This document shows, one piece after another, positions 982-32,185 of a stretch of 64,000 nucleotides of DNA; the stretch's first letter is position 1, and each line of letters opens with the position of its first letter. A model generated the notes under the pieces. It had not been told where the DNA came from, searched no databases, and saw nothing but the letters and a program-made list of their open reading frames with translations. Both the position numbers and the translations under genes were made by a program. Source of the DNA: Escherichia coli (GTDB lineage: Bacteria; Pseudomonadota; Gammaproteobacteria; Enterobacterales; Enterobacteriaceae); NCBI RefSeq assembly GCF_003018255.1, contig NZ_CP027440.1; one strand, given 5' to 3'.

Positions 982-1411
982 GACGCCATATCATAGCAGC
1001 CAGCCTCTTGATACCCAATCTCTTGCTTCTGGAAAAACGCGGTAATAGAGAAAGAGGTTAATTTCATTTGGCAAAGGGAAGTATCATCAGCAAAATATTC
1101 ACTGTAGATGTATCGAATTTTCTGACTCATTTACCCTATTTCCCATCCTGATGCGTAATAATCCCAATTTATCACATTGATTTTATCGCCACTCATATTG
1201 ATACGTATCACTGCCCCTATTCAGGGTCCTGTTTCGTATCATATCTGTGTTTTTTTAACATCATCACACTTCCTTCCTCCCTTAACGCTTATCGTCGTTT
1301 CTGGCGTAAATCTTGCCTGCTTAGACTAAATCTTTGCCATAAGAACCAAATGTTCAAATCGAGGGGATTTCTATGGAAGCGCGGGAAGCAACCGCTACAG
1401 GTGAATCATGC

Positions 1412-3670
1412 ATGCGCGTAGATGCCATTGCTAAGGTCACCGGGCGGGCACGATATACTGACGATTATGTTATGGCGGGCATGTGTTACGCGAAATATGT
1501 ACGTAGCCCTATCGCACATGGTTATGCCATAAGTATTAATGATGAACAAGCCAGAAGTTTACCGGGCGTACTGGCGATTTTTACCTGGGAAGATGTGCCT
1601 GATATCCCATTCGCTACAGCTGGGCATGCCTGGACACTTGACGAAAACAAGCGCGATACCGCCGATCGCGCACTGCTAACTCGCCATGTTCGTCATCATG
1701 GTGACGCCGTTGCCATCGTCGTGGCCCGTGATGAACTCACGGCAGAAAAAGCGGCGCAATTGGTCAGCATTGAGTGGCAAGAATTACCCGTTATCACCAC
1801 GCCAGAAGCGGCGCTGGCAGATGACGCTGCACCAATCCATAACGGCGGCAATTTACTAAAACAAAGCTCGATGTCGACGGGTAATGTCCAACAAACAATC
1901 GATGCCGCCGATTACCAGGTGCAGGGGCACTATCAGACTCCCGTTATTCAACATTGTCATATGGAAAGCGTGACATCGCTGGCATGGATGGAGGATGACT
2001 CGCGAATTACCATCGTTTCCAGCACCCAGATCCCGCACATTGTTCGCCGTGTGGTTGGTCAGGCGCTGAATATTCCCTGGTCATGCGTACGAGTCATCAA
2101 ACCGTTTGTCGGTGGCGGTTTTGGTAATAAACAGGATGTACTGGAAGAGCCAATGGCGGCATTCCTGACCAGCAAGCTTGGCGGCATTCCGGTGAAAGTT
2201 TCCCTTAGCCGTGAAGAGTGTTTCCTCGCAACCCGTACCCGCCACGCTTTTACTATTGACGGGCAAATGGGCGTGAACCGCGACGGAACATTGAAAGGTT
2301 ATAGTCTGGATGTTCTGTCTAACACCGGCGCTTATGCATCTCACGGGCACTCCATCGCTTCTGCGGGCGGAAATAAAGTCGCTTACCTTTATCCTCGTTG
2401 TGCCTACGCTTACAGTTCAAAGACCTGCTATACCAACCTCCCCTCGGCTGGTGCGATGCGTGGTTATGGCGCGCCACAAGTCGTATTTGCCGTTGAGTCT
2501 ATGCTTGATGACGCCGCGACAGCGTTAGGTATTGATCCTGTTGAAATTCGTTTACGCAACGCCGCCCGCGAAGGAGATGCTAATCCGCTCACGGGCAAAC
2601 GTATTTACAGCGCAGGGTTGCCGGAGTGTCTTGAAAAAGGCCGGAAAATCTTTGAATGGGAAAAACGCCGTGCAGAGTGCCAGAACCAGCAAGGCAATTT
2701 ACGCCGCGGCGTTGGCGTCGCCTGTTTTAGCTACACCTCTAACACCTGGCCTGTCGGCGTAGAAATAGCAGGCGCGCGCCTGTTGATGAATCAGGATGGA
2801 ACCATCAACGTGCAAAGCGGCGCGACAGAAATCGGTCAGGGGGCCGACACCGTCTTCTCGCAAATGGTAGCAGAAACCGTGGGGGTTCCGGTCAGCGACG
2901 TTCGCGTTATTTCAACCCAAGATACCGACGTTACGCCGTTCGATCCCGGTGCATTTGCCTCACGCCAGAGCTATGTTGCCGCGCCTGCGCTGCGCAGTGC
3001 GGCACTGTTATTAAAGGAGAAAATCATCGCTCATGCCGCTGTCATGCTACATCAGTCAGCGATGAATCTTACCCTGATAAAAGGCCATATCGTGCTGGTT
3101 GAACGACCGGAAGAGCCATTAATGTCGTTAAAAGATTTGGCGATGGACGCCTTCTACCACCCTGAACGCGGCGGGCAGCTCTCTGCCGAAAGCTCCATCA
3201 AAACCACCACTAACCCACCAGCGTTTGGCTGTACCTTTGTTGATCTGACGGTCGATATTGCGCTGTGTAAAGTCACCATCAACCGCATCCTCAACGTTCA
3301 TGATTCGGGCCATATTCTTAATCCGCTACTGGCAGAAGGTCAGGTACACGGCGGAATGGGAATGGGCATTGGCTGGGCGCTATTTGAAGAGATGATCATT
3401 GATGCGAAAAGCGGCGTGGTCCGTAACCCCAATCTGCTGGATTACAAAATGCCGACCATGCCGGATCTGCCACAACTGGAAAGCGCGTTCGTCGAAATCA
3501 ATGAGCCGCAATCCGCATACGGACATAAGTCACTGGGTGAGCCACCAATAATTCCTGTTGCCGCTGCTATTCGTAACGCGGTGAAGATGGCTACCGGTGT
3601 TGCAATCAATACACTGCCGCTGACGCCAAAACGGTTATATGAAGAGTTCCATCTGGCAGGATTGATTTGA
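1412..3670 (+). CDS. xdhA: xanthine dehydrogenase, molybdenum-binding large subunit
   Basis: ORF in track 1373..3670; start trimmed to Met giving 752 aa (MRVDAIAKVTGRARY...), the length I recall for K-12 XdhA; aldehyde oxidase/xanthine dehydrogenase family. Confidence 0.9.
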   Translation: MRVDAIAKVTGRARYTDDYVMAGMCYAKYVRSPIAHGYAISINDEQARSLPGVLAIFTWEDVPDIPFATAGHAWTLDENKRDTADRALLTRHVRHHGDAVAIVVARDELTAEKAAQLVSIEWQELPVITTPEAALADDAAPIHNGGNLLKQSSMSTGNVQQTIDAADYQVQGHYQTPVIQHCHMESVTSLAWMEDDSRITIVSSTQIPHIVRRVVGQALNIPWSCVRVIKPFVGGGFGNKQDVLEEPMAAFLTSKLGGIPVKVSLSREECFLATRTRHAFTIDGQMGVNRDGTLKGYSLDVLSNTGAYASHGHSIASAGGNKVAYLYPRCAYAYSSKTCYTNLPSAGAMRGYGAPQVVFAVESMLDDAATALGIDPVEIRLRNAAREGDANPLTGKRIYSAGLPECLEKGRKIFEWEKRRAECQNQQGNLRRGVGVACFSYTSNTWPVGVEIAGARLLMNQDGTINVQSGATEIGQGADTVFSQMVAETVGVPVSDVRVISTQDTDVTPFDPGAFASRQSYVAAPALRSAALLLKEKIIAHAAVMLHQSAMNLTLIKGHIVLVERPEEPLMSLKDLAMDAFYHPERGGQLSAESSIKTTTNPPAFGCTFVDLTVDIALCKVTINRILNVHDSGHILNPLLAEGQVHGGMGMGIGWALFEEMIIDAKSGVVRNPNLLDYKMPTMPDLPQLESAFVEINEPQSAYGHKSLGEPPIIPVAAAIRNAVKMATGVAINTLPLTPKRLYEEFHLAGLI

Positions 3671-3680
3671 GGATAACATC

Positions 3681-4559
3681 ATGTTTGATTTTGCTTCTTA
3701 CCATCGCGCAGCAACCCTTGCCGATGCCATCAACCTGCTGGCTGACAACCCGCAGGCCAAACTGCTCGCCGGTGGCACTGACGTACTGATTCAGCTCCAC
3801 CATCACAATGACCGTTATCGCCATATTGTTGATATTCATAATCTGGCGGAGCTGCGGGGAATTACGCTGGCGGAAGATGGCTCACTACGTATCGGCTCTG
3901 CAACGACATTTACCCAGCTCATTGAAGATCCTGTAACTCAACGTCATCTCCCGGCGTTATGTGCTGCGGCCTCATCCATTGCCGGACCGCAGATCCGTAA
4001 CGTCGCTACCTACGGTGGAAATATTTGCAACGGTGCCACCAGCGCAGATTCTGCCACGCCAACGCTAATTTATGACGCGAAACTGGAGATCCACTCCCCG
4101 CGCGGTGTTCGTTTCGTCCCGATTAATGGCTTTCACACCGGGCCGGGCAAAGTGTCTCTTGAGCATGACGAAATCCTTGTCGCCTTTCATTTTCCGCCCC
4201 AGCCGAAAGAACACGCGGGCAGCGCGCATTTTAAATATGCCATGCGCGACGCAATGGATATTTCAACGATTGGCTGCGCCGCACATTGCCAACTGGATAA
4301 CGGCAATTTCAGCGAATTACGCCTGGCATTTGGTGTTGCCGCGCCAACGCCAATTCGCTGCCAACATGCCGAACAGACTGCACAAAATGCGCCATTAAAC
4401 CTGCAAACGCTGGAAGCCATCAGCGAATCAGTCCTGCAAGATGTCGCCCCGCGTTCGTCATGGCGGGCCAGTAAAGAGTTTCGTCTGCATCTCATCCAGA
4501 CGATGACCAAAAAAGTGATTAGCGAAGCCGTCGCCGCGGCGGGGGGAAAATTGCAATGA
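3681..4559 (+). CDS. xdhB: xanthine dehydrogenase, FAD-binding subunit
   Basis: 292 aa ORF directly downstream of xdhA; CO dehydrogenase flavoprotein-like; stop overlaps xdhC start (ATGA). Confidence 0.9.
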
Positions 4560-5035
4560 ATCACAGCGAAACAATTACCATCGAATGCACCATTAACGGG
4601 ATACCTTTTCAGCTTCACGCCGCACCAGGCACGCCGCTCTCGGAATTACTCCGCGAACAAGGACTGCTAAGTGTCAAACAAGGGTGCTGCGTGGGTGAAT
4701 GTGGTGCCTGTACGGTGCTGGTCGACGGCACAGCAATAGACAGTTGCTTATACCTTGCCGCCTGGGCTGAAGGAAAAGAGATCCGCACGCTGGAAGGTGA
4801 AGCGAAAGGCGGAAAACTTTCTCATGTTCAGCAGGCTTATGCGAAATCCGGCGCAGTGCAGTGCGGGTTTTGTACGCCGGGCCTGATTATGGCTACCACG
4901 GCAATGCTGGCGAAACCACGCGAGAAGCCATTAACCATTACGGAAATTCGTCGTGGACTGGCGGGAAATCTTTGTCGCTGCACGGGGTATCAGATGATTG
5001 TAAATACAGTTCTGGATTGCGAGAAAACGAAGTAA
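4556..5035 (+). CDS. xdhC: xanthine dehydrogenase, [2Fe-2S] iron-sulfur subunit
   Basis: 159 aa; 2Fe-2S cysteine motifs [11 protein letters not shown] and CGFCTPG. Confidence 0.9.
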
Positions 5036-5074: not shown

Positions 5075-6853
5075 TTATGTGTTTAACAACTCATATTTCT
5101 TAATCTTGCGATAGAGCGTAGCAATGCCGATGCCCAGTTCATCAGCAACTTCCTTCTTGCTGTTATGACGTGAAAGCGCCTCGCGGATCATTTGCTTTTC
5201 CATCTCCTCCAGCGCCGTGCCGCCCGCATCATCGAGTGCCAGGTGCGCCTCACTGACCTCTGTTACATCACTTTGCTCCGTTGTGCCATTATTCAGCAGA
5301 TTTGGCGGCAATAGCGTGCTGTCGATAACTTCACCTGAAGGAACCACGTTAACCAGATATTCCATCAAATTGCTTAACTCGCGCAGGTTTCCGGGCCAAC
5401 GATGCTTACGCAATATTTCGACGACATCGGGAGCAATGCCCGGATAAACCGATCCCAGACGACGGGTATGCAGATGTAAAAAGTAATGCACCAGTAGTTC
5501 AATATCTTCCTGACGTTCACGCAGCGGTGGCAGAGTTATCGGGATAACATTAAGTCGGTAGAAGAGATCTTCGCGGAATTTACCTTCGGAAATGAACTGG
5601 GCCAAATTCTGGTTAGTTGCAGAAATGATGCGAATGTCGACTTGTATTGGGCTACTGGCACCAATCGGCAGAATTTCACGTGCCTCAATAGCGCGCAGTA
5701 ATTTAGCCTGCAACATTAATGGCATATCACCTATTTCATCGAGAAACAGCGTGCCCGTATTCGCCGCCTGAATCAACCCTGTTTTACCGTTGGCAGAAGC
5801 GCCAGTAAATGCGCCTTTAACATAACCGAACAGTTCGCTCTCCAGAAGCTGCTCCGGAATCGCGGCACAGTTGATAGCAATAAAAGGTTTATTCCGTCTT
5901 CCGCTCAACTTATGGATTGCACGGGCGACGACTTCTTTACCCGTGCCGCTTTCGCCAACCACCATAACGCTGGATGGGCTGGGTGCAATACGGCTAATGA
6001 GTCGTTTTAATTGCCGCATAACACGGCACTCGCCAACCAATTGTTCAATATGCGGTTCATCAGGTGCATTTGCTACAGAAAAACTGGTATGCGATTGGTG
6101 AAACGCCATTAAAAATAATTGTCGGCCCTGAATGTTATGCAATTGACCAATGATTAATTCACTTTTATCGTCCCACGAAACAATATGCTGCATATGTCCA
6201 TGGGTAAAATTACTCTCAAATGTTAATGGTCTGAAACGAACAGGTTTCCCAATAATATTATTTTGCACAACACCGAGTGTTTTTAAGGCAGTCTGATTAA
6301 CAAACTGAACCCGATTTTCGTCATCAACAACTAAAACGCCCTGATCCATATTATCGATCATGGTCGCGAATATTTTACTGATGTTATCTCCTGGCCCCTG
6401 ATCCTCCAGAAGTTTCGAAACAAAAATGGTGGATATATGGCGAACGTAATCAGAAAATTCGCGTAAATTATCACTGATATGTTCTTGTTGCTCGTGGGTA
6501 ACGGCAATCAAACTTATCACCCCAACACAACGATCCTGTAAAATGACAGGCGTACCCAGAAATGCTTTTTCGCGGCAATTTTCTTTACTATCGCAACCTT
6601 CACAAAGGGGATCGAAGCGAGACTGTGTCACAACTTTTTCAGTTTTCGTTTCCAGGACGTGGCGGAGCAGGCGTGAGTTGCCGCTCAACTGGCGACCAAG
6701 AAACTTCCCATACGCGCCCGTTCCGGCGACGCGACACAAGTTTTCATCAACGATCTCAACCTCAAGCTGCAAAACGCTGGCAAGCATTCTGGCAAAACGC
6801 TGAATTGTCGGTTGAATTTGCATCAATACTGACTGCGTAGTAGCAAGCTCCAT
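5075..6853 (-). CDS. ygeV: sigma-54-dependent transcriptional activator (bacterial enhancer-binding protein)
   Basis: 592 aa; Walker A GESGTGKE, sigma-54 contact motif GAFTGA, C-terminal HTH (IATLYRKIKKY), N-terminal sensory region. Confidence 0.9.
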   Translation of the reverse strand: MELATTQSVLMQIQPTIQRFARMLASVLQLEVEIVDENLCRVAGTGAYGKFLGRQLSGNSRLLRHVLETKTEKVVTQSRFDPLCEGCDSKENCREKAFLGTPVILQDRCVGVISLIAVTHEQQEHISDNLREFSDYVRHISTIFVSKLLEDQGPGDNISKIFATMIDNMDQGVLVVDDENRVQFVNQTALKTLGVVQNNIIGKPVRFRPLTFESNFTHGHMQHIVSWDDKSELIIGQLHNIQGRQLFLMAFHQSHTSFSVANAPDEPHIEQLVGECRVMRQLKRLISRIAPSPSSVMVVGESGTGKEVVARAIHKLSGRRNKPFIAINCAAIPEQLLESELFGYVKGAFTGASANGKTGLIQAANTGTLFLDEIGDMPLMLQAKLLRAIEAREILPIGASSPIQVDIRIISATNQNLAQFISEGKFREDLFYRLNVIPITLPPLRERQEDIELLVHYFLHLHTRRLGSVYPGIAPDVVEILRKHRWPGNLRELSNLMEYLVNVVPSGEVIDSTLLPPNLLNNGTTEQSDVTEVSEAHLALDDAGGTALEEMEKQMIREALSRHNSKKEVADELGIGIATLYRKIKKYELLNT

Positions 6854-7222
6854 AGCTTTACCTTCCAGACTTACTTAAAAGTCGATCATTGAAGACGTTG
6901 ATGGTTCATAGATCATGATGATATTAACTCAGGCGAAATTGGCTTTGATAAAAACATAAGATTTTTATCACTTTCTAATGAAATTATGGAAGAGATATCA
7001 CATTTCTATATCAATATGAGAATTACGGCGGTGAGTTTATCAAACTGAAGAGAGATCGCCTGTCCCTTTATCTTATTTCTGATACTTAGCAGCAAATAAA
7101 TAACGCGATAAAAAAAGCCAAACGTTTTCGTATTTTACAAACAACCAGAAGCTGGCATCAATTTGTGATCAACCCCACACATTATCCGTCAAATTAGTCT
7201 TTTGCAGCCCCGTGGATAATTC

Positions 7223-7238
7223 TGGCACACTTATTGTT
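7223..7238 (+). promoter_or_regulatory. candidate sigma-54 -24/-12 promoter upstream of ygeW
   Basis: TGGCACacttaTTGTT: exact -24 TGGCAC, correct spacing, -12 TTGT instead of TTGC; about 90 nt upstream of the ygeW ATG. Confidence 0.35.
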
Positions 7239-7328: not shown

Positions 7329-8519
7329 ATGATGAAAACTGTTAATGAGCTGATTAAGGATATCAATTCGCTGACCTCTCACCTTCACGAGAAAGATTTT
7401 TTGTTAACGTGGGAACAGACGCCAGATGAACTGAAACAAGTACTGGACGTTGCCGCAGCATTAAAAGCACTGCGTGCTGAAAACATCTCAACCAAAGTCT
7501 TTAATAGTGGATTAGGTATTTCCGTATTCCGCGACAACTCCACCCGTACCCGCTTCTCTTATGCTTCCGCGCTTAACCTGCTCGGCCTTGCACAGCAAGA
7601 TCTCGACGAAGGCAAATCACAAATCGCTCACGGCGAAACCGTGCGTGAAACCGCCAATATGATCTCCTTCTGCGCCGACGCTATTGGTATTCGCGACGAT
7701 ATGTATCTGGGCGCAGGCAACGCCTATATGCGTGAAGTTGGCGCTGCACTTGATGACGGTTACAAGCAGGGTGTGCTGCCGCAACGTCCGGCTTTAGTGA
7801 ACCTGCAATGCGATATTGACCACCCGACTCAGTCAATGGCTGACCTGGCATGGTTACGTGAACACTTTGGTTCACTGGAAAACCTGAAAGGTAAAAAAAT
7901 CGCCATGACCTGGGCCTACTCCCCAAGCTATGGCAAACCGCTCTCTGTACCACAAGGCATCATCGGTCTGATGACTCGCTTCGGTATGGATGTCACCCTG
8001 GCCCATCCGGAAGGCTACGACCTGATCCCGGATGTCGTTGAAGTCGCTAAAAACAATGCTAAAGCCTCCGGCGGTAGCTTCCGTCAGGTCACCAGCATGG
8101 AAGAAGCCTTCAAAGACGCAGACATCGTTTATCCGAAGTCATGGGCACCTTACAAAGTGATGGAAGAGCGTACTGAATTGCTGCGTGCGAACGATCACGA
8201 AGGCTTAAAAGCACTGGAAAAACAGTGTCTGGCACAGAACGCGCAACACAAAGACTGGCATTGTACTGAAGAGATGATGGAACTGACCCGTGATGGCGAA
8301 GCCCTGTACATGCACTGCCTGCCAGCTGATATCAGCGGCGTATCCTGCAAAGAAGGTGAAGTGACTGAAGGCGTATTCGAAAAATACCGTATCGCTACCT
8401 ACAAAGAAGCCAGCTGGAAGCCTTATATCATCGCCGCGATGATCCTGTCCCGTAAATACGCCAAACCAGGTGCACTGCTCGAGCAACTGCTGAAAGAAGC
8501 GCAAGAACGCGTGAAATAA
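7329..8519 (+). CDS. ygeW: carbamoyltransferase (ornithine/aspartate transcarbamylase fold; recalled as oxamate carbamoyltransferase)
   Basis: 396 aa; carbamoyl-phosphate binding motif STRTR (NSTRTRFSYASA). Confidence 0.85.
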   Translation: MMKTVNELIKDINSLTSHLHEKDFLLTWEQTPDELKQVLDVAAALKALRAENISTKVFNSGLGISVFRDNSTRTRFSYASALNLLGLAQQDLDEGKSQIAHGETVRETANMISFCADAIGIRDDMYLGAGNAYMREVGAALDDGYKQGVLPQRPALVNLQCDIDHPTQSMADLAWLREHFGSLENLKGKKIAMTWAYSPSYGKPLSVPQGIIGLMTRFGMDVTLAHPEGYDLIPDVVEVAKNNAKASGGSFRQVTSMEEAFKDADIVYPKSWAPYKVMEERTELLRANDHEGLKALEKQCLAQNAQHKDWHCTEEMMELTRDGEALYMHCLPADISGVSCKEGEVTEGVFEKYRIATYKEASWKPYIIAAMILSRKYAKPGALLEQLLKEAQERVK

Positions 8520-8576: not shown

Positions 8577-9773
8577 ATGTCCGTTTTCTCATTGAAGATT
8601 GATATCGCCGATAACAAATTTTTCAACGGCGAAACATCACCGCTTTTTTCGCAAAGCCAGGCAAAACTGGCACGCCAGTTCCACCAGAAAATTGCTGGTT
8701 ATCACCCAACACCGCTTTGTGCGCTGGACGATCTCGCAAACCTGTTTGGTGTAAAGAAAATTCTCGTCAAAGACGAATCAAAACGATTCGGTCTGAACGC
8801 CTTCAAAATGCTTGGCGGTGCGTACGCCATCGCTCAATTATTGTGTGAAAAATATCATCTTGATATCGAAACGCTGTCATTTGAGCACCTGAAAAATGCC
8901 ATCGGCGAAAAAATGACTTTCGCGACTACCACCGACGGCAACCACGGGCGCGGTGTGGCATGGGCAGCACAGCAACTCGGACAGAATGCGGTGATTTACA
9001 TGCCGAAAGGTTCTGCTCAGGAACGCGTTGACGCCATTCTAAACCTCGGTGCCGAGTGCATCGTCACGGATATGAACTATGACGATACCGTTCGCCTGAC
9101 CATGCAACACGCGCAGCAGCACGGCTGGGAAGTGGTACAGGACACGGCATGGGAAGGTTACACCAAAATCCCAACCTGGATCATGCAAGGCTACGCAACA
9201 CTGGCGGATGAAGCCGTCGAGCAAATGCGTGAAATGGGCGTCACCCCGACACACGTTCTGCTGCAAGCCGGTGTCGGTGCAATGGCCGGTGGTGTGCTGG
9301 GTTATCTGGTCGACGTCTATAGCCCGCAAAATCTGCACAGCATTATTGTTGAACCTGACAAAGCTGACTGTATTTATCGCTCCGGCGTCAAAGGCGACAT
9401 CGTCAACGTTGGCGGTGATATGGCCACCATCATGGCGGGCCTGGCCTGCGGCGAACCTAACCCACTGGGCTGGGAAATCCTACGTAACTGCGCCACCCAA
9501 TTCATCTCCTGCCAGGACAGCGTTGCCGCATTAGGTATGCGCGTGCTGGGTAATCCGTATGGCAACGACCCGCGCATCATCTCCGGTGAATCCGGCGCTG
9601 TCGGTTTGGGCGTTCTCGCAGCGGTTCATTATCACCCGCAACGTCAAAGCCTGATGGAAAAACTGGCGCTGAACAAAGATGCCGTGGTGCTGGTTATCAG
9701 CACTGAAGGCGACACCGACGTGAAGCACTACCGCGAAGTTGTCTGGGAAGGCAAACACGCTGTAGCACCTTAA
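8577..9773 (+). CDS. ygeX: PLP-dependent 2,3-diaminopropionate ammonia-lyase
   Basis: 398 aa; fold-type II PLP enzyme lysine motif (NAFKMLGGAY). Confidence 0.85.
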   Translation: MSVFSLKIDIADNKFFNGETSPLFSQSQAKLARQFHQKIAGYHPTPLCALDDLANLFGVKKILVKDESKRFGLNAFKMLGGAYAIAQLLCEKYHLDIETLSFEHLKNAIGEKMTFATTTDGNHGRGVAWAAQQLGQNAVIYMPKGSAQERVDAILNLGAECIVTDMNYDDTVRLTMQHAQQHGWEVVQDTAWEGYTKIPTWIMQGYATLADEAVEQMREMGVTPTHVLLQAGVGAMAGGVLGYLVDVYSPQNLHSIIVEPDKADCIYRSGVKGDIVNVGGDMATIMAGLACGEPNPLGWEILRNCATQFISCQDSVAALGMRVLGNPYGNDPRIISGESGAVGLGVLAAVHYHPQRQSLMEKLALNKDAVVLVISTEGDTDVKHYREVVWEGKHAVAP

Positions 9774-11094: not shown

Positions 11095-12480
11095 ATGCGC
11101 GTATTGATCAAAAACGGCACTGTCGTTAACGCAGATGGACAAGCCAAACAAGATTTGCTGATTGAGAGCGGGATTGTTCGCCAATTGGGCAGCAATATTT
11201 CGCCGCAGGTCCCGTATGAAGAAATTGATGCCACTGGCTGTTACGTTTTCCCTGGCGGCGTGGATGTCCATACGCATTTCAATATTGATGTCGGCATCGC
11301 GCGCAGTTGTGATGATTTTTTTACCGGTACCCGCGCAGCTGCGTGTGGCGGTACAACAACCATTATTGACCATATGGGATTTGGCCCGAATGGCTGCCGG
11401 TTACGCCATCAACTGGAAGTTTATCGCGGTTATGCCGCCCACAAAGCAGTCATCGACTACAGCTTTCACGGTGTCATTCAACATATCAATCACGCTATCC
11501 TCGACGAAATTCCGATGATGGTTGAGGAAGGACTGAGCAGTTTTAAACTCTATTTAACCTATCAATATAAACTCAACGATGATGAAGTGTTGCAGGCATT
11601 ACGCCGCTTGCATGAATCCGGCGCGCTGACCACCGTGCACCCGGAAAATGACGCAGCTATCGCCAGCAAGCGGGCGGAGTTTATCGCCGCAGGGTTAACC
11701 GCGCCGCGTTATCATGCCTTGAGTCGACCTCTGGAATGCGAAGCGGAAGCCATCGCCCGCATGATTAACCTGGCACAAATTGCCGGTAACGCCCCGCTCT
11801 ATATCGTGCACCTGTCTAACGGCTTAGGTCTGGATTATCTGCGTCTTGCCCGTGCGAATCACCAGCCAGTCTGGGTTGAAACCTGCCCACAATATCTCCT
11901 GTTGGACGAACGCAGTTACGATACAGAAGATGGCATGAAGTTCATTCTTAGCCCACCGCTGCGTAACGTACGCGAGCAGGACAAACTGTGGTGTGGCATC
12001 AGCGATGGTGCGATTGACGTGGTAGCGACCGATCACTGCACATTCTCGATGGCTCAACGCCTGCAAATTTCTAAAGGCGATTTCAGTCGCTGCCCAAATG
12101 GCTTACCCGGTGTGGAAAACCGCATGCAGTTACTGTTTTCCAGTGGCGTTATGACGGGACGTATAACACCGGAACGTTTTGTTGAATTAACCAGCGCGAT
12201 GCCCGCCAGGCTGTTTGGCCTGTGGCCGCAAAAAGGATTATTAGCGCCCGGTTCCGATGGCGACGTGGTGATTATCGACCCACGTCAGAGTCAACAAATT
12301 CAGCATCGCCATCTCCACGACAACGCCGACTACTCGCCATGGGAGGGTTTTACCTGTCAGGGCGCGATTGTCAGAACTTTATCCCGTGGTGAAACGATTT
12401 TCTGTGACGGCACCTTTACAGGCAAAGCCGGGCGAGGTCGTTTCCTGCGACGCAAACCGTTTGTCCCTCCCGTGCTCTAA
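11095..12480 (+). CDS. hyuA: cyclic amidohydrolase (D-hydantoinase/dihydropyrimidinase family)
   Basis: Track ORF 11083..12480; start trimmed to MRVLIKNG (461 aa); metal-binding HxH motif GGVDVHTHF. Confidence 0.85.
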   Translation: MRVLIKNGTVVNADGQAKQDLLIESGIVRQLGSNISPQVPYEEIDATGCYVFPGGVDVHTHFNIDVGIARSCDDFFTGTRAAACGGTTTIIDHMGFGPNGCRLRHQLEVYRGYAAHKAVIDYSFHGVIQHINHAILDEIPMMVEEGLSSFKLYLTYQYKLNDDEVLQALRRLHESGALTTVHPENDAAIASKRAEFIAAGLTAPRYHALSRPLECEAEAIARMINLAQIAGNAPLYIVHLSNGLGLDYLRLARANHQPVWVETCPQYLLLDERSYDTEDGMKFILSPPLRNVREQDKLWCGISDGAIDVVATDHCTFSMAQRLQISKGDFSRCPNGLPGVENRMQLLFSSGVMTGRITPERFVELTSAMPARLFGLWPQKGLLAPGSDGDVVIIDPRQSQQIQHRHLHDNADYSPWEGFTCQGAIVRTLSRGETIFCDGTFTGKAGRGRFLRRKPFVPPVL

Positions 12481-16677: not shown

Positions 16678-16692
16678 TATCATAATGATAAG
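16678..16692. promoter_or_regulatory. perfect 7-1-7 palindrome TTATCAT-A-ATGATAA upstream of ygfK
   Basis: Read directly from the sequence; further TGATAA/TTATCAC-type half-sites nearby (16723-16730 GTGATAAA). Confidence 0.3.
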
Positions 16693-16859
16693 GAATCACT
16701 GATTTTGAGAAAAGAGAAAAAGTGATAAATGGGCTGGCAATAATAATTTTCAGGAGTGATTTTAATTCTCATTTGGCACCTGTGAGTTCATTCACAAAAA
16801 GCCATTAAGTTTCGAGCCGCCTCACATTTTTTTATATTTCCCGCCAAACCTGGCAAGAG

Positions 16860-31819: not shown

Positions 31820-32101
31820 TTGCATCCCTTTCATTTAATGAGTTATGTCTTCTCAAATTTCGCGATGCAATAAATGGGCATGTATTAGGTAGCATGGCCG
31901 ATTTAATTATAATTTTGCGACTGAGTTCAAATTATTGCCCCTCAATCTATGCAGCTTTCATTATTTCAACATTGCCGATCAAAAGAATGCTATCCAGATA
32001 AAAACGATTAAATGCGAGAGTGCGACATGCCAGAATGATTAATGAAATATCAATATGAGAAAATTACAGATAATTCCATTGTCAGGTTCTCTTCTCATTT
32101 T

Positions 32102-32169: not shown

Positions 32170-32185
32170 TGGCACTCCACGAGCA
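32170..32185 (+). promoter_or_regulatory. weak candidate sigma-54 -24/-12 element upstream of uacT
   Basis: TGGCACtccacgaGCA: exact -24, correct GG-N10-GC spacing, -12 lacks the TT. Confidence 0.25.

Follow-up and report, generated by a model that had tools for sequence, protein, structure and literature searches.

The window analyzed here, a stretch of 64,000 nucleotides of Escherichia coli (contig NZ_CP027440.1), carries the cluster for anaerobic purine and uric-acid breakdown, in which xdhABC (1373–5035), ygeV, ygeW (7329–8519), ygeX, ygeY, hyuA and others to ygfK (16948) are found. The cluster is controlled by YgeV (IsrR). The pathway has been studied for gut urate disposal and engineered anti-gout probiotics, and YgeV has been associated with indole signalling and with the virulence of enterohaemorrhagic E. 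coli and Citrobacter. The ygeV gene (5075–6853, minus strand) encodes a σ54 enhancer-binding protein with PAS, AAA+ Sigma54_activat and HTH_8 domains. The cluster encodes no other σ54 activator, and YgeV has been proposed to activate these operons (PMC10602906). The gene is divergent from ygeW (7329/7332–8519, plus strand), and the subject of this report is an inverted repeat in the spacer between the two genes.

The repeat is perfect over 9 bp, with the left arm TGATAAAAA at 6946–6954 and the right arm TTTTTATCA at 6962–6970 (both given on the plus strand), separated by the 7-nucleotide spacer CATAAGA (6955–6961). The initial annotation, which had noticed it at 6945–6969 and read it as a possible upstream activator sequence or autoregulatory site of ygeV, was thus off by one position. 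Its distance of about 280 bp from the ygeW promoter was roughly right: the center of the repeat and the GG of the −24/−12 element downstream of it are 266 bp apart. The TATCAC-containing repeats described nearby, TTTATCACTT (6964–6973) and GATATCACATTT (6994–7005), are also present, but the C of the former (6971) is a minority allele. TATCAT stands in its place in K-12, in 2666 of 5177 E. coli genomes, and in Citrobacter, Salmonella, Atlantibacter and Trabulsiella. We therefore dropped TTTATCAC as a shared motif, since its C is polymorphic and TATCA-N3-TGA proved to be the common unit.

Judged by itself, the repeat is only modestly beyond chance. When the 475-bp spacer (37% G+C) was shuffled with dinucleotide composition preserved, 4.3% of the shuffled spacers contained a perfect inverted repeat that was equal or better (9 bp or more in each arm, with up to 20 between them), and about a dozen comparable repeats occur elsewhere in the window. 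No second copy of the 9-N7-9 dyad was found in the window with up to three mismatches allowed. The frequency in shuffled spacers would suit the view that the repeat is a chance dyad in an AT-rich spacer, with no sequence-specific function and at most contributing A-tract curvature, a UP-element-like tract or nucleoid-protein binding, its conservation reflecting shared ancestry. We consider this rather unlikely, judging from the spacing of the repeat to its neighboring sites, from the sequence of its arms and from the way they are conserved, as described below.

The surroundings are those of a σ54 control region. In a chromatin immunoprecipitation sequencing (ChIP-seq) study (Bonocora et al., PMC4591121), σ54 sites are given for xdhA (CTGGCGTAAATCTTGCC, 1301), ygfK (GTGGTGCGATTGTTGCT, 16859), ygfT (minus strand, approximately 31883–31867) and ygeW. 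The ygeW promoter CTGGCACACTTATTGTT (7222–7238, plus strand) is identical to site OS30 of that study, is conserved in all orthologues, and is also within a σ54 peak obtained by genomic SELEX (systematic evolution of ligands by exponential enrichment; PMC8743547). A 13-bp palindrome, TATCA-N3-TGA(T/G)A, is common to the regions upstream of these four genes. Its pattern TATCANNNTGA is matched 11 times in the window, whereas shuffled sequences give 1.44 ± 1.24 matches and none of 100 shuffles reaches 11; seven of the nine distinct sites fall upstream of the four ChIP-seq promoters. The sites lie 105–209 bp upstream of the −24 elements. In an unbiased screen for 4-N(0–12)-4 dyads, only eight dyads recur in every one of the four regions, each of them a sub-word of the palindrome. 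The position weight matrix built from these regex-selected sites is circular at the core positions and was used for the flanks only.

In the ygeV-ygeW spacer, the strongest candidate for a YgeV palindrome of the ygeW enhancer is site A, TATCAATATGAGA (7009–7021, plus strand), which is invariant in seven divergent E. coli strains and becomes the perfect TATCAATATGATA in Kluyvera and Intestinirhabdus. Site B, TATCAAACTGAAG (7038–7050, plus strand), is a weaker second candidate, and its center-to-center distance of 29 bp from site A is fixed in all nine genera of the spacer alignment. Abutting site A is A', TATCACATTTCTA (6996–7008, plus strand), a conserved (A)TCACATTT block that resembles a half-site with a poor second half and in which TCACA-TT is invariant in the nine genera. 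The xdhA enhancer has two convergent sites 22 bp apart, TATCACATTGATT (1170–1182, plus strand) and TATCAATATGAGT (1191–1203, minus strand), at 105–127 bp from the −24 element. Upstream of ygfK, a perfect palindrome, TATCATAATGATA (16678–16690), lies 177 bp upstream of the −24 element, and an isolated half-site, TTTTGAGAAAA (TGAGA at 16706–16710), is located 24 bp from it and conserved in seven genera. The spacer between ygfT and uacT has a further copy of the site A sequence (32048–32060, plus strand), which lies upstream of the ChIP-seq site of ygfT at a distance of about 174 bp.

Orthologous loci were collected by a search of 50%-identity representatives together with a search seeded with the Buttiauxella orthologue, giving 12 loci from eleven genera or lineages. 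YgeV identity is 88% in Citrobacter amalonaticus, 87% in Salmonella, 80% in Atlantibacter, 77% in Trabulsiella, 74% in both Klebsiella aerogenes and Kluyvera, 72% in Pluralibacter, 71% in Intestinirhabdus and 52% in Buttiauxella. Three metagenomic contigs represent two lineages, two of them near-identical to each other at 50% and one at 45%. In all 12 loci ygeV is near ygeWXY-hyuA-yqeA, xdh and ygfK, and in 11 of them it is divergent from ygeW. The motif is present upstream of the ygeW, xdh and ygfK σ54 promoters in every one of the 12 loci at the same positions. The recognition helix of the Fis-type helix-turn-helix (HTH), ELGIGIATLYRKIKKY, is identical in the ten enterobacterial orthologues whose C-termini were compared. 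In Kluyvera (L091, 11811), Klebsiella aerogenes (L092, 11785) and Intestinirhabdus (L096, 11792), a gene for a major facilitator superfamily transporter replaces xdhABC and is preceded by CGTATCACTCTGAGAGC, so that the regulon motif tracks the gene replacement.

The palindrome also accompanies the helix in distant homologues. These were taken from a contig scan with YgeV that is dominated by the AAA+ peptide; their best-segment identities are 50% or less, and none is an enterobacterial orthologue. Homologues with the helix LGIGIATLYRK (about 36–38% identity) in Sedimentibacter hydroxybenzoicus (L003), Clostridium thailandense (L009) and Propionigenium maris (L011) each have three perfect TATCA-N3-TGATA palindromes, often followed by AAAAA, located 105–135 bp upstream of a TGGCAyA...TTGCT promoter (11852–12003, 9043–9140 and 12110–12220, respectively). 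Six homologues with other helices have no palindrome, including that of Citrobacter werkmanii with the near-identical LGISIATLYRK, and a seventh (L007, LGISRATLYRK) has a single match directly after its gene. This co-occurrence of helix and motif is good, though indirect, evidence that TATCA-N3-TGA(T/G)A is the recognition site of the YgeV family.

The relation of the repeat to this palindrome should be noted. Each arm is an extended half-site, TGATAAAAA, consisting of TGATA and an A-rich 3′ flank, and the same 9-mer trails perfect palindromes in the Clostridium (L009) and Propionigenium (L011) loci. In the four upstream regions of the window, TGA[GT]AA[AT][AT] occurs eight times against 0.49 expected, and the density of half-sites is 19–22 per kb in three of the four regions and 11.5 per kb at ygfT, compared with 6.9 per kb in AT-rich controls. 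However, the two arms face outward, the left toward ygeV and the right toward ygeW, with 15 bp between the pentamers, and neither has a partner pentamer at N3 (the would-be partners are ATTGG on the left and TCTAA on the right, matching at one or two of five positions). The repeat is therefore not a copy of the regulon palindrome. The initial reading as an upstream activator sequence thus holds in that the region is a σ54 control region with enhancer-type sites and the arms carry TGATA/TATCA with A-rich flanks, but the 9-N7-9 dyad is not the regulon unit; the recurring dyad is TATCA-N3-TGA(T/G)A at 7009–7021 and 7038–7050.

The outward arrangement itself has a counterpart at the enhancer. The junction between sites A and B reads TGAkA-N16-TATCA, in the TGATA form in four more distant genera and as TGAGA in E. 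coli at the same spacing, while TGATA-N15-TATCA occurs only at the orthologous repeat position, in five genera. Since the outward N15 arms resemble the N16 junction, the repeat may be seen as what is left of two neighboring sites, 28 bp apart center to center, of which the inner halves are kept and the outer halves would be degenerate. The isolated half-site beside the ygfK palindrome is a precedent for such half-sites within the regulon.

Conservation of the repeat was scored in the alignment of the spacer from nine genera as the number of the eight other genera sharing the E. coli base. The left arm scores 5.3/8 in all genera and 3.9/4 in the closest four (95th percentile of 9-bp windows), falling to the 36th percentile in the four distant ones. 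The right arm scores 5.6/8 and 3.4/4 (79th percentile), and is at the 66th percentile in the distant genera. The loop scores 1.9/8, compared with a spacer mean of 4.2/8, 6.5/8 for A', and 7.5/8 for both site A and the σ54 promoter. The contrast between arms and loop is unexpected under neutral decay, and the stretch from the repeat to sites A and B is free of insertions and deletions in five genera while the remainder of the spacer is rich in indels and substitutions. Nor would a chance dyad be expected to have two arms that are both exactly identical to the family half-site. On the other hand, the core and its spacing are kept in only five of the nine genera (Escherichia, Citrobacter, Salmonella, Atlantibacter and Trabulsiella), being lost or shifted in four, and the conserved portion is limited to TTGATAAA...TTTATCA, the right arm keeping only TTTATCA in relatives. 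The A5/T5 extension that gives nine pairs is specific to E. coli. The conservation anticipated for an activator sequence is accordingly found in part: the arms exceed the loop in the five closest genera, but the dyad as originally drawn does not extend beyond E. coli in full length. Both the loss in four genera and the restricted extension are as a chance dyad would behave.

The manner of conservation also bears on whether the repeat acts as a nucleic-acid hairpin, either as a DNA cruciform or, if ygeV has a long leader RNA, as a stem-loop within it. Folded as single-stranded DNA, the 9-bp stem reaches −5.0 to −5.4 kcal/mol, with a z of about −3.6 relative to shuffled sequences, and a σ70-like TTGATG-18-TAAAAT (7161–7132, minus strand) would place the repeat in the ygeV leader. 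However, the stem is very weak because all its pairs are A-T but one G-C (eight and one, respectively), the distal promoter-like site is unconserved, and Rfam gave hits only at noise level. No terminator was called at the repeat, whose stem is not G+C-rich and is not followed by a T-run. No compensatory change was found in the nine-genus alignment; the inner pairs are simply lost in relatives, where only 7 bp of complementarity are left. The conservation of the arms around a variable loop, with no compensatory changes, suggests protein contacts rather than a hairpin, which we regard as very improbable.

Within E. coli, the two most frequent haplotypes, that of K-12 (2666 genomes) and that of the window (908), both have an intact repeat. 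The repeat block is more polymorphic than the A/B block, as would suit a chance dyad: exact matches to the 61-bp haplotypes number 908 of 4966 genomes for the former and 3779 of 5177 for the latter, most of the variation lying outside the arms. An alignment of seven E. coli strains contains too few substitutions to footprint the repeat. The window is not that of K-12: its segment 6780–7400 is identical to that of strain DETEC-S792 and 98.9% identical to that of BW25113, and the ygeV-ygeW spacer has no match in 245 of 5426 complete E. coli genomes.

The position of the repeat relative to ygeV is a further point. About 105 bp separate the repeat from the ATG of ygeV downstream, and it is about 20–35 bp from a conserved −10-like block, ATGATAcTAc (6918–6928), which reads TAATAT/TAGTAT on the ygeV strand and possibly belongs to a σ70 promoter of ygeV; no recognizable −35 element was found for this block. 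The repeat would be centered near −44 of the presumptive start. A full-pattern match, TATCATCATGATC (6911–6923, minus strand), overlaps the block, and only its TATCAT part is conserved. Because the repeat adjoins the −10-like block, its occupancy may also regulate ygeV, and an autoregulatory site is possible.

The same placement would suit an operator or activator site for another factor on the ygeV σ70 promoter, for example an indole-induction factor, with a dimer bound to the 25-bp dyad about 44 bp upstream of the presumptive start. ygeV is strongly induced by indole (PMC9426417) and is outside the YgeV iModulon (PMC10602906), being thus regulated apart from its targets. Conserved arms with a variable loop would also suit any dimeric DNA-binding protein. 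However, both arms would then match the extended half-site of the YgeV family exactly by coincidence, the −44 placement is a guess, and the dyad is missing in four genera that retain the −10-like block. Comparison of the repeat and site A with the consensus sequences of FNR, CRP, Fur, IHF, RcsB, CpxR and ArgR and with the LysR T-N11-A gave no convincing match. We consider such a factor unlikely.

We favor, at about even confidence, the reading that the repeat consists of accessory half-sites for YgeV, located at the edge of the ygeW enhancer nearest to ygeV and possibly also autoregulating ygeV. In this mechanism, the Fis-type HTH of YgeV would recognize TATCA-N3-TGA(T/G)A, often followed by an A-run, and the enhancer would be an array of upstream activating sequences of about 105 bp (about 6946–7050) with the repeat at one edge. 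YgeV dimers would first occupy sites A and B. The low-affinity half-sites of the repeat would then be filled cooperatively, aiding assembly of the active hexamer, which would loop to the σ54 holoenzyme at 7222–7238 across the CRP site described later. Occupancy of the repeat may damp or tune ygeV transcription, as in PspF and NorR. In a bifunctional form of this mechanism, the orphan half-sites would be filled at high YgeV occupancy only, completing the ygeW oligomer and at the same time covering the −35/−45 region of the ygeV promoter, thereby setting the level of YgeV; we hold this form to be conceivable but doubtful. If it is true, a clade-specific repeat with two functions could join other inputs, such as the indole induction of ygeV/isrR, to the control of purine catabolism.

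Several observations weigh against accessory YgeV half-sites. The repeat itself fails the regulon motif, neither arm having an N3 partner, and an AT-rich 9-bp repeat appears in about 4% of shuffled spacers. It is 266 bp from the −24 element, whereas the sites of xdhA, ygfK and ygfT are closer (105–177 bp). Klebsiella aerogenes and Kluyvera lack the dyad, Pluralibacter has no more than its left arm and Intestinirhabdus no more than a shifted right arm; since these genera have ygeV, ygeW and the σ54 promoter, the repeat is dispensable for ygeW control. Its conservation in the closest genera is partly due to short divergence time, and an E. coli O145 lineage (27 genomes) has a broken right arm, TATAA, which is also in line with a chance dyad. 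Two homologues with a matching helix, of Eubacterium yurii (L001, LGIGIATLYRK) and Clostridium thailandense (L004, MGIGIATLYRK), have no motif in the DNA compared. A YgeV DNA site, operator or binding data were not found in the searchable literature, and neither was a description of the candidate operator proposed here. The sequence anatomy, the enrichment, the conservation and the pairing of motif with helix are observed directly, whereas we infer that YgeV is the binding protein, that it binds cooperatively and that ygeV is autoregulated. The repeat would be a minor, lineage-restricted part of ygeW control, the main interest lying in the candidate YgeV operator.

The proposed arrangement resembles known σ54 systems. 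In NtrC at glnAp2 and in XylR/DmpR at UAS1-UAS2, dyads for a Fis-type HTH are located 100–300 bp upstream of a −24/−12 promoter, several sites share one face of the helix, the weaker ones fill cooperatively as the hexamer assembles, and a site for a bending or architectural protein is present between the enhancer and the promoter, a place taken here by CRP. However, the sites of NtrC and XylR are unrelated to TATCA-N3-TGATA, and the E. coli repeat is two outward half-sites only, not a full site. YgeV is not a response regulator; its N-terminal part is a sensory region that includes a PAS domain. In pspF-pspA and norR-norVW, the activator gene is divergent from its σ54 target and the enhancer in the shared spacer is beside the σ70 promoter of the activator, so that the bound protein can repress its own gene. 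Autoregulation is known for PspF and NorR, whereas for ygeV both it and the promoter are putative, and the sites differ: NorR binds three copies of GT-N7-AC, the PspF upstream activating sequence is also different, and the elements in E. coli close to the activator promoter are half-sites only.

The arrays of Propionigenium, Clostridium and Sedimentibacter (L011, L009 and L003) are like the E. coli repeat in their pentamers, the A-rich flank TGATAAAAA, the outward TGATA...TATCA junction and the recognition helix. They differ from it in consisting of complete, perfect palindromes 19–21 bp apart at 105–135 bp from the promoter, whereas the repeat lacks both outer halves, has an implied spacing of 28 bp, and is 266 bp from the promoter. 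The comparison gives an operator model with a core of TATCA-N3-TGA(T/G)A and accessory half-sites including the repeat, from which the bases that matter in promoter fusions are predicted. The motif could also predict regulons of the YgeV family in gut Firmicutes and Fusobacteria.

Other elements of the spacer are as follows. A CRP-type site, TGTGATCAACCCCACA (7164–7179, plus strand), is located between the enhancer and the promoter, with TGTGA...C.CA conserved in nine genera; a Crp site in this spacer has been mentioned (PMC12507026). A perfect CRP consensus, TGTGA-GTTCAT-TCACA (16781–16796), also lies between the palindrome and the σ54 promoter of ygfK and is kept in six of seven genera. The same relative position at both promoters suggests that catabolite control is built into both. 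In the nine-genus alignment, site B forms a conserved block at 7036–7048, and the conserved block at 6981–7023 comprises AAATTATGGAAGAG, (A)TCACATTT and site A. The first part of the latter, AAAT(T/A)ATGGAAGAG (6981–6995), lies between the repeat and A' and is conserved in all nine genera. An open reading frame of 20 codons, MEEISHFYINMRITAVSLSN (6986–7048), starts in this part and overlaps A' to B. It is open in several genera, and in C. amalonaticus and Atlantibacter it also ends at the same stop. A Shine-Dalgarno sequence is absent and the conservation is not codon-periodic; we rejected the frame as probably a by-product of the fixed site spacing.

Between the enhancer and the CRP site, a PurR-box-like sequence, AAGCCAAACGTTTTCGTA (7115–7132), is found in Escherichia, Citrobacter, Salmonella, Atlantibacter and Trabulsiella. 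Compared with the PurR box sequence ACGCAAACGTTTGCGT, it agrees at 13 of 16 positions.

Elsewhere in the window, TGGCACTCCACGAGCA (32170–32185) has a σ54-like GG-N10-GC about 70 bp upstream of the likely start of uacT (ygfU) and about 117 bp downstream of the TATCAATATGAGA copy. It is not among the σ54 sites in the accessible part of PMC4591121. A full YgeV-type palindrome, ATATCATCTTGATAT, lies within the coding sequence of ygeX (8851–8867), which encodes an enzyme dependent on pyridoxal phosphate (PLP), and is kept in Citrobacter amalonaticus (L090, 7999–8015); it may be an intragenic site or a mere coding constraint.

The palindrome of ygfK and the Fur box have ATAATGATAA in common, which we regard as a coincidence. 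Upstream of ygfK, GAGTGATTTTAATTCTCATTT (16754–16774) is nearly invariant in seven genera and contains outward half-sites, TGAtt-N5-TCTCA, 10 bp apart center to center. Within it, TGAGAATTA on the minus strand has the same sequence as the right half of site A at ygeW. TCACA(C/T)TT is found at 1264–1271 and 16820–16827, conserved about 35–40 bp upstream of the −24 elements of xdhA and ygfK, and also in A' (6998–7005), and might be half of a CRP-like site.

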